Shown: positions 8,288 to 36,111 of the stretch, piece after piece
Position numbering within the stretch: position 1 is the first letter of the stretch
Layout of the letters: every line of letters begins with the position of its first letter
The notes under the pieces: generated by a model
What the model was told of the DNA's origin: nothing
What the model saw: only the letters and a program-made list of their open reading frames with translations
Databases searched by the model: none
Program-made: the position numbers and the translations under genes
From: a virus
Lineage: Duplodnaviria > Heunggongvirae > Uroviricota > Caudoviricetes
Virus record (IMG/VR): IMGVR_UViG_2541047766_000005
Direction: 5' to 3' (one strand)
DNA length: 40,812 bases

Positions 8288-8423
8288 AAAGAAGATTTCC
8301 AATAATCAGAACAAGTCGGCTCCTGTTTAGTTACGAGCGACATTGCTCCGTGTATTCACTCGTTGGAATGAATACACAGTGCAGTATTTATTCTGTTGTT
8401 TATGCCAAAAATGAAGGCCACCA

Positions 8424-8624
8424 TCAGGCAGCCTTGTTGTTCTGTTTACCAAGTTCTCTGGCAATCATTGCCGTCGTTCGTATTGCCCATTTATCGACAT
8501 ATTTCCCATCTTCCATTACAGGAAACATTTCTTCAGGCTTAACCATGCATTCCGATTGCAGCTTGCATCCATTGCATCGTTTGAATTGTCCACACCATTG
8601 ATTTTTATCAATAGTCGTAGTCAT
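8424..8624 (-). CDS. ral: Restriction alleviation protein Ral
   Basis: 66-aa ORF MTTTIDKNQWCGQFKRCNGCKLQSEC..., matching lambda Ral in length and (from memory) sequence. Confidence 0.65.
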   Translation of the reverse strand: MTTTIDKNQWCGQFKRCNGCKLQSECMVKPEEMFPVMEDGKYVDKWAIRTTAMIARELGKQNNKAA

Positions 8625-8702
8625 ACGGATAGTCCTGGTATTGTTCCATCACATCCTGCGGATGCTCTTCGAACTCTTCAAATTCTTCTTCCATATCTCA
8701 CC

Positions 8703-8906
8703 TCAAATAAGTGGTTTGCTGCCTAATTTCATTTTCTGGCGACCAACACAAGTCACACCCATTTCACTGCGTGGCTTGCTGTAGTAAAGATTGTGCCTGT
8801 CTTTTAACCACATCAGGCTCGGTGGTTCTCGTGTACCCCTACAGCGAGAAATCGGATAAACTCTATTCACCCCTACAGAGAGCAAAAGAGAAACGCCGAT
8901 GAACAA
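8703..8906 (-). pseudogene. Fossil of a lambda-type N gene (only the C-terminal ~28 codons are N-like)
   Basis: ORF ends ...YYSKPRSEMGVTCVGRQKMKLGSKPLI, closely resembling the lambda N C-terminus (...YSKPGERGITCSGRQKIKGKSIPLI); upstream part has no N similarity and overlaps the SieB-like start. Confidence 0.45.
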
Positions 8907-9480
8907 CTCATGGTGGCAGGAACTAATGCATTTTTTCCTGCAAGGAATGACACTTAAACAGTTGATTCATATGCTAATCATCCTGATCATATTGATTATT
9001 GTTATGCCGGTAAGCGTAAAAGAATGGATAAACCTGCATAATCCAGAAATCCTTCCTCATTATTGGATGTATTACATCCTGTTGTTCTGCGTTAGCTATG
9101 TGCTTAACGGTGTAGTTAATTCCGCTTATCACGCTGTGACTGAAAGAATTGAGGTATCCGCTGCTCAGAAGCGCAAATCCAAAGAAGAAAAATATGTGCA
9201 AGATTTGTTTGATTCGTTAACTCTTGGAGAAAGAGCGTATTTGGCATTCGCTGTAGCCGCTAATAACCAGCTACAAACGGAAAAGGGAGCTCATGAATCA
9301 ATTTCATTGCTCAAAAAAGGCCTCCTCGTTCGAAGGCCTCCTGCTGTTGGATATCCTGATACCGACCGTTTTATTATCCCGGAAAGCTATAGACATGAGT
9401 GCTACATTAGGTTTGCCGGGAAGGCAGACAGCCTTATGGATGAACTTATCGCTCAGGATAAGCATGGCAAAAACAAGTAA
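8899..9480 (+). CDS. sieB: SieB-like superinfection exclusion membrane protein
   Basis: 193-aa ORF on the opposite strand inside the early-left operon between ral and N; two N-terminal hydrophobic helices; N-terminus MNNSWW... recalled as SieB-like. Confidence 0.6.
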   Translation: MNNSWWQELMHFFLQGMTLKQLIHMLIILIILIIVMPVSVKEWINLHNPEILPHYWMYYILLFCVSYVLNGVVNSAYHAVTERIEVSAAQKRKSKEEKYVQDLFDSLTLGERAYLAFAVAANNQLQTEKGAHESISLLKKGLLVRRPPAVGYPDTDRFIIPESYRHECYIRFAGKADSLMDELIAQDKHGKNK

Positions 9481-9496
9481 TTAGCAAATGAATTTA

Positions 9497-9769
9497 TCAT
9501 CTCGCTGTCAGTTGTTTTGATTTCCGGTAGCCTGCCGCGTAAAGAGCTACGTTTGGCAGGCAAATACTTCCACTGCGTTCATCTTCTTCCTTACAGCGAA
9601 GGCTTCCGAGTGATGCTGCTTTGTCTGCTCTGACGCAACCAGAGAGCTTTAGCGCAATCTTTCGCGCCAGTCGCTGTTCTTGCATTGCCTGTTCACGTTG
9701 AGCCTGTCTGCGTGCTCTGCGGCGATTTCTGGCGTTATCGTCAGCCAGATATGTAATGACTACTGTCAT
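9497..9769 (-). CDS. N-like transcription antiterminator (P22 gp24 type)
   Basis: 90-aa ORF with arginine-rich motif NARNRRRARRQAQ near the N-terminus and C-terminus LPNVALYAAGYRKSKQLTAR resembling P22 gp24; GGAGG SD; first gene downstream of nutL. Confidence 0.75.
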   Translation of the reverse strand: MTVVITYLADDNARNRRRARRQAQREQAMQEQRLARKIALKLSGCVRADKAASLGSLRCKEEDERSGSICLPNVALYAAGYRKSKQLTAR

Positions 9770-9877
9770 GTTGACCTCCGATGATTGACTTTGGCGGTGA
9801 CGCGCCGGGTGCTTATCTTCCGGTTGCCGTCGTGCAGCTGCACTTCACGTCACCCCAAAGCCAACTACTCTTTGGTT

Positions 9878-9917
9878 CCCGCATTTCGGCGGGACAATCC
9901 CATCAATGTTAAAGAGC
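9878..9917 (-). promoter_or_regulatory. nutL (boxA GCTCTTTAA and boxB hairpin CCCGCCGAAATGCGGG)
   Basis: On the leftward transcript, boxA-like GCTCTTTAACA then a 5-bp-stem hairpin; the same boxA and an identical boxB occur at 11547-11589 downstream of cro. Confidence 0.7.
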
Positions 9918-9965
9918 CTGCCAATCTGTTCCGTTTGGCTACCAGCGTCCTGCTGATGGCTAAAG

Positions 9966-10050
9966 AATACTGTAGGTATTTTATTGTGTAAATACCCAAG
10001 GTATTTATTTTTGGTGAGATAATGATAAGCAAATGAATACAAAGGATATT
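9966..10050 (-). promoter_or_regulatory. OL operators and pL region
   Basis: Three 15-bp sites AATACTGTAGGTATT (9966-9980), AATACCCAAGGTATT (9991-10005), AATACAAAGGATATT (10036-10050) sharing AATAC-N5-GTATT dyad symmetry with the OR sites. Confidence 0.65.
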
Positions 10051-10136
10051 TATTTTTTCGGTGTCTGCTTGTTCAGTGCTTTTTATGCGGGATATGTGAA
10101 GTGGATCCCGATAGCTATTGCTGCCGGGATTATGGG

Positions 10137-10505
10137 TTAGTCAGCGAAGGTTAAGACGAGAATTACCTTAATGATGTCTGCTACAACAGACACGGCCATA
10201 GATAAACCAAAGACAATCCAAGCCATAGAGATGTCTTCACTACCATCGTATAGAGTTCCGTAATCACTGGTGTAAGGCGTAAATGTCGCGCCTTGATACA
10301 ATAGGTATAAGCTTGATCCATAGAGGATAAATGCAGATATTCCTTGTATTGCCATGATCACCAGAATCATGAAACGAGCTGATCTATGCGCCCAAGCCTG
10401 GCTTATTTTTTCTGATAGAGATTTCGCAATAAAAGCATGCGCTAAGCCGTAAATTGTCGAGATTGCCAACATCCCAAAAAAGCTTGCTATAGCGGTTCCA
10501 ACCAT
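10137..10505 (-). CDS. Multi-pass membrane protein encoded immediately downstream of cI (rex-position gene)
   Basis: ORF with three predicted hydrophobic helices; probable ATG start at 10505 with AAGGGG SD (track ORF starts at TTG 10526 overlapping the cI stop). Confidence 0.6.
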   Translation of the reverse strand: MVGTAIASFFGMLAISTIYGLAHAFIAKSLSEKISQAWAHRSARFMILVIMAIQGISAFILYGSSLYLLYQGATFTPYTSDYGTLYDGSEDISMAWIVFGLSMAVSVVADIIKVILVLTFAD

Positions 10506-10522
10506 AAGCGCCCCTTGCGTGA

Positions 10523-11239
10523 TCAAACCAGCCTTAGTTTTGTCTCAATTGCAACGCCTATAATCTTGCAGTTTCCATTGATTGGCACGAGAGGCCATGC
10601 AGGGTTAAGTCCCTTGAGGTATTTATTTCCGCCGTCGATTATCAGCTTCTTGAATGTTGCTTCGTTAGAGTCAGAAAGTTTTGCTATGACCAAGCTGCCG
10701 TTGATCGCCTCCCTTCCGGTATCGAAAAGAACGAATGTTCCCTCTGGAATGCTTAACCCAACCGGTGCCGTCATTGAATCACCTTCCACTTTAAGCCAAA
10801 ACGCATTACCTTGAATATGCGCGTCAGACTCAAGCCAAACATCTATGTCTTTAATGGTGTATGGTTCGCATGCTTCACACCACGAGCCAGCCTGGATACT
10901 GCTTAACACCGGATACCTCTTTCCTGCTCTGTATTCCCCTGCATACCTTACGTTGGCATCGCTCTTAAGGCTTTCTGCCTGTTCTGCAACCTTGGCAGCA
11001 ATTGACTGGCTAAAATCAGCAATTGAGACTTGCAACAGTCGTGCAAAACCAGATGCAACCTCAACGTTTAGCGCGTTTCTGCCATTAAGATAATGCCCTA
11101 CCGCTCCTTGGGTGATACCCAGTTCATCAGCGATTGAGTATTGGGTTATTCCCAATTCTTTCTTTTTTGACTCATACAAAGCCTTAAGCCGCTTAGCGTC
11201 TTCGAGCTGTTCTGTCGTCAGTGATTTTTTATTTTCCAT
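10523..11239 (-). CDS. cI: CI-type prophage repressor (HTH N-terminal domain, LexA/S24-like C-terminal autocleavage domain)
   Basis: 238-aa ORF with lambda-CI-like architecture (QYSIADELGITQGAVGHYLNG helix-turn-helix; C-terminal VEGDSM...FKKL motif); divergent from cro across the operator region. Confidence 0.9.
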   Translation of the reverse strand: MENKKSLTTEQLEDAKRLKALYESKKKELGITQYSIADELGITQGAVGHYLNGRNALNVEVASGFARLLQVSIADFSQSIAAKVAEQAESLKSDANVRYAGEYRAGKRYPVLSSIQAGSWCEACEPYTIKDIDVWLESDAHIQGNAFWLKVEGDSMTAPVGLSIPEGTFVLFDTGREAINGSLVIAKLSDSNEATFKKLIIDGGNKYLKGLNPAWPLVPINGNCKIIGVAIETKLRLV

Positions 11240-34114: not shown

Positions 34115-36111
34115 TGGCTAAAGCATGGAAAGATGTTATCGCCTCTCCACAGTATCAGGCGTTAGCACCAGAACAAAAAGCGCAGGCTCAGGAGCAATAC
34201 TTCAATGAAGTCGTGGCACCGCAAGCCGGAGAAAATGCAGAGCAGGCTAAGCAAGCTTTCTATGCAGCCTATCCATTGTCATCTGTGCAGCCAGTGGAGA
34301 CACAGCAACCAGTAGCACAGCAACAACCACAGCAAAGTAGATTTATGTCTGACCTTGGTGAAGCAGTGAAAGAGACTGGTCGCGGACTGGTGCAGGCTGG
34401 CGTGAACGTGGCAAACATACCTGCATCAATTGCCGATGCTGTAACAAGCGCGGCGGCATGGGCTGGCGGTAAACTCGGCATTGGCGATGGGACATATCAA
34501 CCAGCGCCACGAGTAACAACGCAGGGATTAGAACAGGACTTTGGTCTTCAGCAAGGCGCGCTGACTCCACAAACGACAGAGGGCAGGGTATTTGCTGAGG
34601 CATTGCCTTATCTCACTCCTGCTGGCGTTGAGAGAGCGGCAACACAGGCACCAACACTTGCTGGTCGAATTGCTCAGGGTGCAACTCGCCTTCTCGCAGA
34701 AAACGCAGTCGGAACACTTGCTGCAAATAGTGCGAAAGATGATGCGGAAGCACTCGCCACCGATTTAGGCGTTGGTGTTCTGGCTGGAGGCGCTATTAAC
34801 GCTGCTGGACGTGGATTAGGTGCTGCTTATCGTGGCGTTCGTGGTGCTATCGCACCAGAAGCGCAACAGGCTATCAGATTTGCAGAGCGTGAAGGGGTGC
34901 CTCTTCATACTACTGACCTCTTACAGCCTACTTCCCGCGTCGGAAAAATGGCGCAAACGACAGCAGAAAATATCCCCCTGGCTGGCACAAGCGGAATGAG
35001 AGCAACGCAACAGGAAGCGAGAAGTCAGTTGGTGCAGAGATTTGCTGATAAATTCGGTGAGTATGATCCAGCGGTTATTATTGACAGCCTTAAAGCGAAA
35101 ACATCAGGAATTCGTCGTGCTGCTGGGAACCGTCTTGAGCAGGTTCAGAATGCAATGGCGGGAGTCAACATTCAGCCTGCGCGAGCAATTCAGCAGATTG
35201 ATACTGAGATATCTAATCTGCAGAAGCTTGGTAAGGTTGCTGATAACGAGACGATTTCAAAACTTCAATCATATCGTGATGAGCTTGTTCGCAATGCTGG
35301 TCCTGATGGTCCGGTAAATCTGGATTTGAAACAATTAAGCGATCTGCGCAGCCAGTTCAGAATGGACGTGAAGGGGGAGCGACCAGTGTTACCAAACCGT
35401 TCCGATGCCGCCATTCAGCGCGTTTACAAGGCAATGACCGACGATATCAATAGTGTCATTGGTCAGAATCTTGGCAACGATACTCTCCGGAAATATCAGC
35501 AGGCCAATGCCGTCTACGCTGACGAAGCGGCGAAACTAAAGAATACCAGGCTGAAGAATGTTCTCATGAAAGGCGATCTGACGCCGGAAGTTGTCAACAA
35601 CATGCTATTCAGCAAGAACAAATCGGAAATTAAGACTCTGTATAACTCAGTTGGTCGTGTTGGCAGGGCGCAAATGCGCAATGGCATCATTGGAAAGGCG
35701 ATGGAGAAATCTGGCGGATCCCCTGACCAGTTCCTTCGGCAGCTTAACATCCTGCAAAACCAGACTGGCATCACATTTAAGGGTCAGGACGCTGCTTATC
35801 TGAAAGGATTAAAAAACTACCTGCAATCCACGCAGCAGGCTGCAAAAGCGGCAGTAACAACACCCACAGGGCAGCAAACCATCCCGTTCATTATTGGGTA
35901 TGGTACGGCAATGAACCCGGCGACAACTGGCGCAGCAGTAAGCTACGGACTTCTTACTCGCGCCTATGAGAGCGAGCCATTCAGAAATGCAATGCTCAGA
36001 ATGGCAAACACCCCACGTGGATCAACAGCGTTTGAGAAAGCCATGCAGCAGGCACAAAAGGCAATTAGCGCCATGACTCAGGGTGCTAAGTCTGATGCGT
36101 TGTCAGAATAG
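34114..36111 (+). CDS. Ejection protein, P22 gp16-like
   Basis: 665-aa ORF in the gp16 position. Confidence 0.65.
   Translation: MAKAWKDVIASPQYQALAPEQKAQAQEQYFNEVVAPQAGENAEQAKQAFYAAYPLSSVQPVETQQPVAQQQPQQSRFMSDLGEAVKETGRGLVQAGVNVANIPASIADAVTSAAAWAGGKLGIGDGTYQPAPRVTTQGLEQDFGLQQGALTPQTTEGRVFAEALPYLTPAGVERAATQAPTLAGRIAQGATRLLAENAVGTLAANSAKDDAEALATDLGVGVLAGGAINAAGRGLGAAYRGVRGAIAPEAQQAIRFAEREGVPLHTTDLLQPTSRVGKMAQTTAENIPLAGTSGMRATQQEARSQLVQRFADKFGEYDPAVIIDSLKAKTSGIRRAAGNRLEQVQNAMAGVNIQPARAIQQIDTEISNLQKLGKVADNETISKLQSYRDELVRNAGPDGPVNLDLKQLSDLRSQFRMDVKGERPVLPNRSDAAIQRVYKAMTDDINSVIGQNLGNDTLRKYQQANAVYADEAAKLKNTRLKNVLMKGDLTPEVVNNMLFSKNKSEIKTLYNSVGRVGRAQMRNGIIGKAMEKSGGSPDQFLRQLNILQNQTGITFKGQDAAYLKGLKNYLQSTQQAAKAAVTTPTGQQTIPFIIGYGTAMNPATTGAAVSYGLLTRAYESEPFRNAMLRMANTPRGSTAFEKAMQQAQKAISAMTQGAKSDALSE

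Follow-up and report, generated by a model that had tools for sequence, protein, structure and literature searches.

The middle region of lambda N contacts NusA, and residues 82-107 of the protein are the part that contacts RNA polymerase. In lambda DE3 (imm21), the N gene of phage 21 (N21; NC_042057 11092-11391) is intact and is followed directly by orf28 and ral, without sieB. Gene remnants at "novel joints" in mosaic lambdoid genomes, and morons, were reportedly described by Juhala et al. in 2000. A linker model of mosaicism, based on short homology, was presented by De Paepe et al. (2014; PMC3945230), according to whom such short-homology exchanges occur; the minimal pairing segment for Red-beta is 23-27 bp (PMC3945230).

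The locus described here lies in a tailed-phage sequence of 40,812 nt (Caudoviricetes; IMG/VR record IMGVR_UViG_2541047766_000005), hereafter the window, to which all coordinates refer unless another sequence is named. Within it, positions 8703-8788 are very probably a dead pseudogene fragment at a mosaic joint, consisting of the last 27 codons and the stop of a 21-type N gene. No description of this remnant was found in the full-text literature searched, and Franklin (1985) and Ranade & Poteete (1993) may mention it. The fragment is a product of ordinary lambdoid mosaicism, with no new mechanism or function.

Parent allele of the N-tail fragment

Read leftward from pL, the order of elements is nutL boxA, N, the convergent sieB gene, the DNA upstream of sieB, the fragment, an orf28 homologue and ral. 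Their positions are as follows.

8424..8624, minus strand: ral (restriction alleviation), 66 aa, the anti-restriction gene beyond orf28
8608..8694, minus strand: lambda orf28 homologue (MEEEFEEFEEHPQDVMEQYQDYPYDYDY), whose Shine-Dalgarno sequence GAGGTGA overlaps the stop codon of the fragment
8703..8788, minus strand: N-tail fragment, 86 nt, made up of 2 nt of a codon, 27 codons (YYSKPRSEMGVTCVGRQKMKLGSKPLI) and a TGA stop
8703..8813, minus strand: 36-aa ORF, MWLKDRHNL plus the N tail, the sole ATG-started reading of the fragment, with its start within the sieB promoter block
8703-8906, minus strand: mechanical ORF containing the fragment, 67 aa from TTG 8906, with YYSKPRSEMGVTCVGRQKMKLGSKPLI and a stop as its C-terminal end
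8789..8793, no strand: filler of 5 nt (CAATC on the minus strand), from neither N21 nor, clearly, the sieB promoter block
8794..8898, plus strand: conserved sieB promoter and 5'-leader block, with the annotated P22 promoter at 8832-8862 and the RNA start at 8869
8899..9480, plus strand: sieB, superinfection-exclusion gene, 193 aa, convergent with N (Pfam PF14163, E 2.2e-22; PHROG 1301, E 1.3e-121)
9497..9769, minus strand: working N, 90 aa (Pfam N_peptide, E 2.9e-16; PHROG 271 positions 58-157)
9908..9917, minus strand: nutL boxA (GCTCTTTAAC), upstream of the working N

Matches to boxA occur twice in the window (nutL and nutR), against 0.04 expected, and a possible boxB-like hairpin can be read from the letters after nutL boxA, at about 9877-9894. 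Alignment gives the working N a 21-like middle (ARKIALKLSGCVRADKAASLGSLRCK) and a P22-type tail (LPNVALYAAGYRKSKQLTAR). Between N/nutL and a cI-like repressor gene (10523-11239), a predicted membrane protein of 129 aa is encoded at 10137-10526 (minus strand), without a PADLOC match. This is the position at which lambda has rexAB, and HK140 gp48 occupies the equivalent place.

A first-pass annotation of this DNA had matched the end of the 8703-8906 ORF to the C-terminus of lambda N and had placed the functional N on the other side of sieB. Both observations hold. Pfam matches to SieB and N_peptide confirm the neighbouring genes, with the working N across sieB from the fragment. The 27 codons are identical to lambda N residues 82-107 (sequence checked against NC_001416) at 17/27 aa, with a significant E of 1e-8 for this single comparison, and positions 137-170 of the 176 in PHROG 271 ("anti-termination protein N-like") match ORF residues 32-66 with E 9.5e-11. 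Lambda N residues 82-107 map to the same C-terminal end of that family. No Pfam family, N_peptide included, matched the ORF, and its residues 1-31 had no match in either Pfam or PHROG.

The parent, however, had been taken to be lambda N itself. At the DNA level, the best local match between the fragment and lambda N is just 39/56 nt, whereas 85/86 nt of 8703-8788 are identical to the 3' end of the intact phage-21 N in lambda DE3, as are 26/27 aa of the encoded peptide. Therefore, lambda N is rejected as the parent allele, and the likeness to it is ordinary family homology. Comparison with N21 also locates the breakpoint: homology ends abruptly at 8788/8789, at about N21 codon 72/73, which places the limits given at first (8703-8790) correctly to within 2 nt. 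The N21-orf28-ral order of lambda DE3 is the pre-joint arrangement, and by these alignments the fragment is the tail of a 21-type N gene fused behind the sieB promoter block.

The sieB joint and its 61-nt deletion

Lambda, P22, HK140, Stx1a_10051, three E. coli prophages and six IMG/VR contigs all share, letter for letter, the junction between the two parts, GACAGGCA-CAATC-TTTACTAC. HK140 is the closest relative across the 1.7-kb region. The neighbours of this joint vary: lambda N together with a lambda-type sieB in one case, P22 gp24 in another, and elsewhere a different sieB allele or a gene other than sieB. That the joint is identical despite differing sieB and N alleles points to a single origin.

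These contexts bear on the event that the scar records. It had been proposed that a P22-type nutL-N-sieB block replaced lambda N and left the lambda N C-terminus behind, which is taken here as a recent event in the window's own phage. The position of the fragment, where the 3' end of N would lie relative to orf28-ral, is consistent with such a replacement, as are the identity of the ral-orf28 stretch to lambda (274/279) and the homology to lambda N 82-107. Nevertheless, this history is very unlikely: the fragment is of phage-21 rather than lambda type, and the same joint adjoins lambda's own N and sieB, P22 gp24 and non-sieB cargo. A joint in such varied contexts is neither recent nor specific to a P22-type block. 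With a 21-type parent and an older, shared joint, the original interpretation is only partly supported. Its N remnant, the position on the far side of sieB and the recombination joint stand, but the parent allele and the recorded event do not.

Alternatively, a cassette of ~800 bp (8789-9589) comprising the P22-type N tail, sieB and PsieB could have been inserted in situ into an N21-type gene, replacing ~36 nt. The middle of the window's N is 21-like to codon 60 (...SLGSLRCK) and the fragment resumes at N21 codon 73, leaving just ~12 N21 codons unaccounted for. However, P22 gp24 has the same tail and scar with an unrelated middle, and lambda has a complete N beside sieB in addition to the scar. 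Furthermore, N middles and tails reassort freely (a lambda body with a 21-type tail; a P22-type arginine-rich motif with a 21-type tail), so the 21-like middle can have arrived separately, and given P22 and lambda this is at least as likely. We consider in-situ insertion improbable, and equally improbable its corollary that the present N and the fragment are two halves of one original gene. Fusion of a 21-type N tail behind the sieB promoter block remains the preferred reading.

In lambda, P22 and HK140, the joint (GACAGGCACAATCTTTACTAC) is identical to that of the window, and much of the fragment is missing.

8710..8770, no strand: stretch of 61 nt absent from lambda, P22 and HK140 (alignments; the gap is 61 columns)
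8711..8721, no strand: left copy (GTGGTTTGCTG) of an imperfect 11-nt direct repeat, 10/11 identity, spacing 60 nt
8771..8781, no strand: right copy (GTGGCTTGCTG), which with the left copy brackets the deleted stretch

Such a repeat-bracketed loss is the signature of slippage or microhomology deletion. Since 61 is not a multiple of three, the deletion destroys the reading frame. What is left of the scar in lambda (34358-34390) is 18 nt of the fragment start and the stop/Shine-Dalgarno region, and lambda's real N lies across sieB from this deleted scar. Undeleted scars are found with a different sieB allele in E. coli CU37RT-2, and with a phrog_1244 non-sieB gene in O26:H11 11368 and Stx1a_10051. 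Three different genes lie downstream of the undeleted scar, all starting from the same ATG after TGAGGTGAGAT, and every state retains TGAGGTGA(G/T)ATATG. Among 5,426 complete E. coli genomes, counted at a coverage of at least 80% of a junction-spanning query, the undeleted scar is present in 58, the deleted scar in 502, and an intact 21-type N across the breakpoint in 285.

On the other side of the joint, the sieB promoter block begins at 8794 in phages that have no fragment (VT1-Sakai, ev203, ev099 and Klebsiella phage Kp4884-1). The annotated 31-nt sieB promoter feature of P22 matches exactly at 8832-8862; positions 8789-8878, comprising the five joint bases and most of the block, are 85/90 identical to lambda, and the block is ~80% identical in the Klebsiella phage. 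The same block precedes two types of sieB as well as phrog_1244 genes. With a predicted promoter of its own, an orientation opposite to the operon and exchangeable cargo, the sieB cassette would fit the description of a moron.

The promoter block contains twin ACCCCTACAG(C/A)GAG repeats at a distance of 34 bp (8835-8851 and 8869-8885), of which the second falls on the mapped RNA start, and a 6-bp inverted repeat, AACCAC-N10-GTGGTT, at 8806-8827. Both may be regulatory sites.

In VT1-Sakai, ev203 and ev099 (loci L009, L010 and L011, ~1340-1510), the promoter block is joined straight to the region upstream of ea10, without the fragment, orf28 or ral. This joint, GACAGGCA followed by TA..., resembles a deletion between GGCA microhomologies corresponding to window positions 8795-8798 and ~8404-8407. 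These copies were considered as the pre-joint state of the block and set aside, since secondary deletion may have produced them; of the fragment-free blocks, that of the Klebsiella phage alone is clearly independent.

Where sieB would otherwise follow this promoter block, some phages have a gene for a phrog_1244 protein. These proteins (164-171 aa) resemble a coiled coil in the N-terminal half and carry a zinc ribbon (CxxC...CxxC) in the C-terminal part. Their carriers are O26:H11 Stx1 prophages, phage ev099 and the Klebsiella phage, and the genes, all on the plus strand, are located as follows.

L007 2004-2498: phrog_1244 gene
L004 2204-2698: phrog_1244 gene
L011 1593-2096: phrog_1244 gene
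L012 1604-2119: phrog_1244 gene

No Pfam match and no credible PADLOC match was obtained for these cargo genes, which are candidates for an alternative exclusion or defence gene. The ev099 record annotates a wrong-strand ORF in place of the phrog_1244 gene.

Coding potential of the fragment

Phage-21 N occupies the same position as the fragment, just upstream of the orf28 ribosome-binding site. In comparison, the fragment is without the first 72 codons, which hold the arginine-rich boxB-binding motif and the middle region, and without a start codon, ribosome-binding site or nut site of its own. As an N antitermination protein (PHROG 271 / Pfam PF25694) it would lack both the boxB-binding motif, its PHROG match being confined to C-terminal positions, and the central region (ARKIALKLSGC... 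in 21-type N; the part of lambda N that contacts NusA), while homology to the C-terminal, RNA polymerase-contacting end is present. Additionally, it lies beyond sieB, and not just downstream of pL-nutL as N genes do.

A separate question is whether the frame encodes a real small gene, of 67 aa from TTG 8906 or 36 aa from ATG 8813, that carries the RNA polymerase-binding tail of N. The frame is open in 11/11 copies of this scar type, the tail is nearly that of a working N21, and the locus is on the pL transcript. However, no convincing Shine-Dalgarno sequence could be read, including ahead of the in-frame ATG 8813, and the 40 codons ahead of the N tail run antisense to the promoter and leader of sieB, without a match to any family. 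Neither reading is conserved: the long ORF is absent in Stx1a_10051, the 36-aa ORF reads MWLKDRHNLYYRNPLFKVIYGRRI and a stop in lambda, and the deletion breaks the frame in most relatives, namely lambda, P22, HK140 and ~500 E. coli genomes. Similarly, in copies of the Kapi1 type a stop codon lies shortly before the fossil, with no start in frame ahead of it. PGAP called no CDS at the scar in three genomes. Variants among the 11 scar copies are 0 synonymous to 4 non-synonymous, in comparison with 10:13 in intact N21-body genes, although such small numbers are not decisive. A functional small gene is thus hardly credible, and the 36-aa ORF is probably not expressed.

For phages that retain the undeleted scar, translation off the pL transcript of a 36-residue peptide from ATG 8813, with nine new residues and the complete 21-type N tail, is just as far-fetched. 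If it did occur, a free N tail could compete with or modulate N-dependent antitermination. One conceivable effect is interference with superinfecting phages whose N is of lambda or 21 type, as the N of the resident phage ends in a P22-type tail instead. In that case, the scar would have been co-opted as a micro-gene next to the exclusion gene sieB.

A complete, distinct conserved gene had been named as an alternative to a remnant, and was rejected: Pfam is blank, PHROG matches the N-tail part alone, and the long ORF is unconserved. An RNA element was likewise excluded by a shuffle fold test and an Rfam scan. The minus-strand RNA of 8690-8800 folds no better than its shuffles (z = +1.10), and Rfam over 8300-10100 returned nothing save a chance snoRNA match (E 0.17). 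Furthermore, a consensus scan for promoters and terminators found none inside the fragment. The sharp end of homology and the lack of gene signs agree with the initial reading of a non-functional C-terminal N remnant at a recombination joint. The stop/Shine-Dalgarno/ATG junction, which is kept in every state, is the sole part that looks constrained.

The N 3' end as a mosaic boundary

IMG/VR was scanned for the exact 26-nt core of the block, which yielded 124 copies including the window and loci fetched earlier. The DNA upstream of the block falls into the following classes, whose proportions are not population frequencies, since the exact seed biases the sample.

33/124 loci: 21-type N body, intact gene
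37/124 loci: lambda-type N body, in-frame hybrid, joint at TACAGCAAGCC
11/124 loci: sieB promoter block (the window's scar type)
16/124 loci: intrinsic terminator of an extra gene, Kapi1 type, 93 nt kept
25/124 loci: P22-type N tail, TGA formed at the joint, last 55 nt kept (apparently including 933W, judged from match geometry)
2/124 loci: unclassified

Across these varied contexts, the 3' end of N is a recurrent mosaic boundary with several independent remnants. Short terminal pieces have three distinct joints, leaving 86 nt in the window, 93 nt in the Kapi1 type and 55 nt in what is apparently the 933W type. The three joints are clustered more tightly than under a uniform breakpoint model (~3% by a crude estimate), and a constraint or recombination hot spot may thus be involved.

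Several of these loci have further features. In hybrid N genes with a lambda body and a 21-type tail (among IMG/VR loci L015-L134, e.g. L018 and L026), the two parts meet exactly at the shared motif TACAGCAAGCC (Y-S-K-P). The N of an Stx2a phage (L013 5755-6096) has a 21-type tail as well, but its N-terminal arginine-rich motif is of P22 type. By these comparisons, the N gene is itself a mosaic of three parts. In N genes with a P22-type tail (...KSKQLTAR; e.g. L015 and L025, and apparently also 933W / VT2-Sakai), the TGA is created at the joint GCGAG/GTGACTTG with the last 55 nt of the block, which thus forms a second, shorter fossil directly after these genes. This 55-nt piece could have arisen from an arrangement like that of the window through loss of the whole sieB cassette at TGA microhomologies. 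In Kapi1 (L014, MT813197), an independent N-tail fossil at 1801-1893 (NRIYYSKP...PLI and a stop) directly follows the terminator of a 114-aa gene. There, an Nmad5-family gene (L014 1845-2528) is annotated from a TTG inside the fossil; its real start is probably the ATG at L014 1905, after GAGAGGAATTAAT.

The fragment is little decayed, with one substitution relative to N21, which would also suit selection. One possibility is that the block is maintained as useful DNA, a portable homology patch (linker or boundary) plus ribosome-binding site that is not decaying. In the 124 loci, its near-invariant sequence is preceded by DNA of five kinds (the body of N21, the body of lambda N, the sieB promoter block, a terminator and a P22-type N tail) and followed by at least five different genes, which start at the ATG after the block. 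At 86 nt it also exceeds the Red-beta minimum of 23-27 bp (PMC3945230) and could therefore act as a homology patch. Against this, lambda, P22 and 502 E. coli genomes manage without 61 of the 86 nt, and VT1-Sakai-type phages without the block entirely. Moreover, shared ancestry by itself makes the block useful in recombination, without any need for selection. Maintenance of this kind is thus unlikely, if conceivable, and the same degree of doubt attaches to the specific role of exchanging an immunity/N/exclusion segment on one side and ral and anti-restriction genes on the other. This reading is compatible with that of a pseudogene fragment and does not exclude it. The near-perfect preservation can be explained by recent common ancestry, or by repeated recombination with intact N genes.

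The identities, joints, deletion and variety of contexts, all observed directly, suggest a history of the dead fragment in which we infer the order of events, a single origin and neutrality. The scar would have been created once, when the left end of a segment carrying N, sieB and PsieB, just behind the sieB promoter, was joined illegitimately to an N21-type gene at its codon 72; orf28-ral directly followed that gene at the time. The join would have removed the 5' 214 nt of the N21-type gene and produced the order N(x) - sieB - PsieB - 'N21 tail - orf28 - ral, an arrangement that homologous recombination in conserved DNA on either side would then have carried into other lambdoid phages. The window would keep the earliest, undeleted state of the scar. 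Most of the fragment would have been lost, by a 61-bp deletion between the imperfect 11-nt repeats, in the lineage that passed the scar on to lambda, P22 and HK140. The order from intact gene to scar to deleted scar is the most parsimonious one, rather than that of a dated phylogeny. Because the joint is shared, also by lambda and P22, the event predates the window's phage and is tied to the sieB promoter block and not to the P22-type N. The fragment would be functionless save for its last ~15 nt (stop, Shine-Dalgarno GAGGTGA and spacing to the ATG), which would be the translation-initiation region for whichever leftward gene follows.

If so, the N-sieB-ral arrangement of lambda and P22 would descend from a joint that destroyed a 21-type N gene, and the fragment would give direction to part of lambdoid genome history. 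With the scar as a marker, one could also follow how prophages exchange their immunity, N and exclusion modules, and it could be a worked example for the debate over linker-mediated versus illegitimate recombination in phage mosaicism. For annotation it calls for caution, as ORF callers can run into the fossil, as they probably did with the Kapi1 Nmad5 start.

In comparison to known systems, the block resembles the linkers of the short-homology model (De Paepe et al. 2014; PMC3945230) in that a short conserved block lies between variable modules and is likewise long enough for Red-beta/RecT-type recombination; selection for a linker role of the window's block, however, is hypothetical. As in the remnants and morons at lambdoid novel joints, a truncated gene piece sharply abuts unrelated DNA beside an oppositely oriented accessory gene with its own promoter. 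In contrast to other such remnants, the window's scar is unusually widespread, is present in eroded form in lambda and P22, and can be ordered into states.
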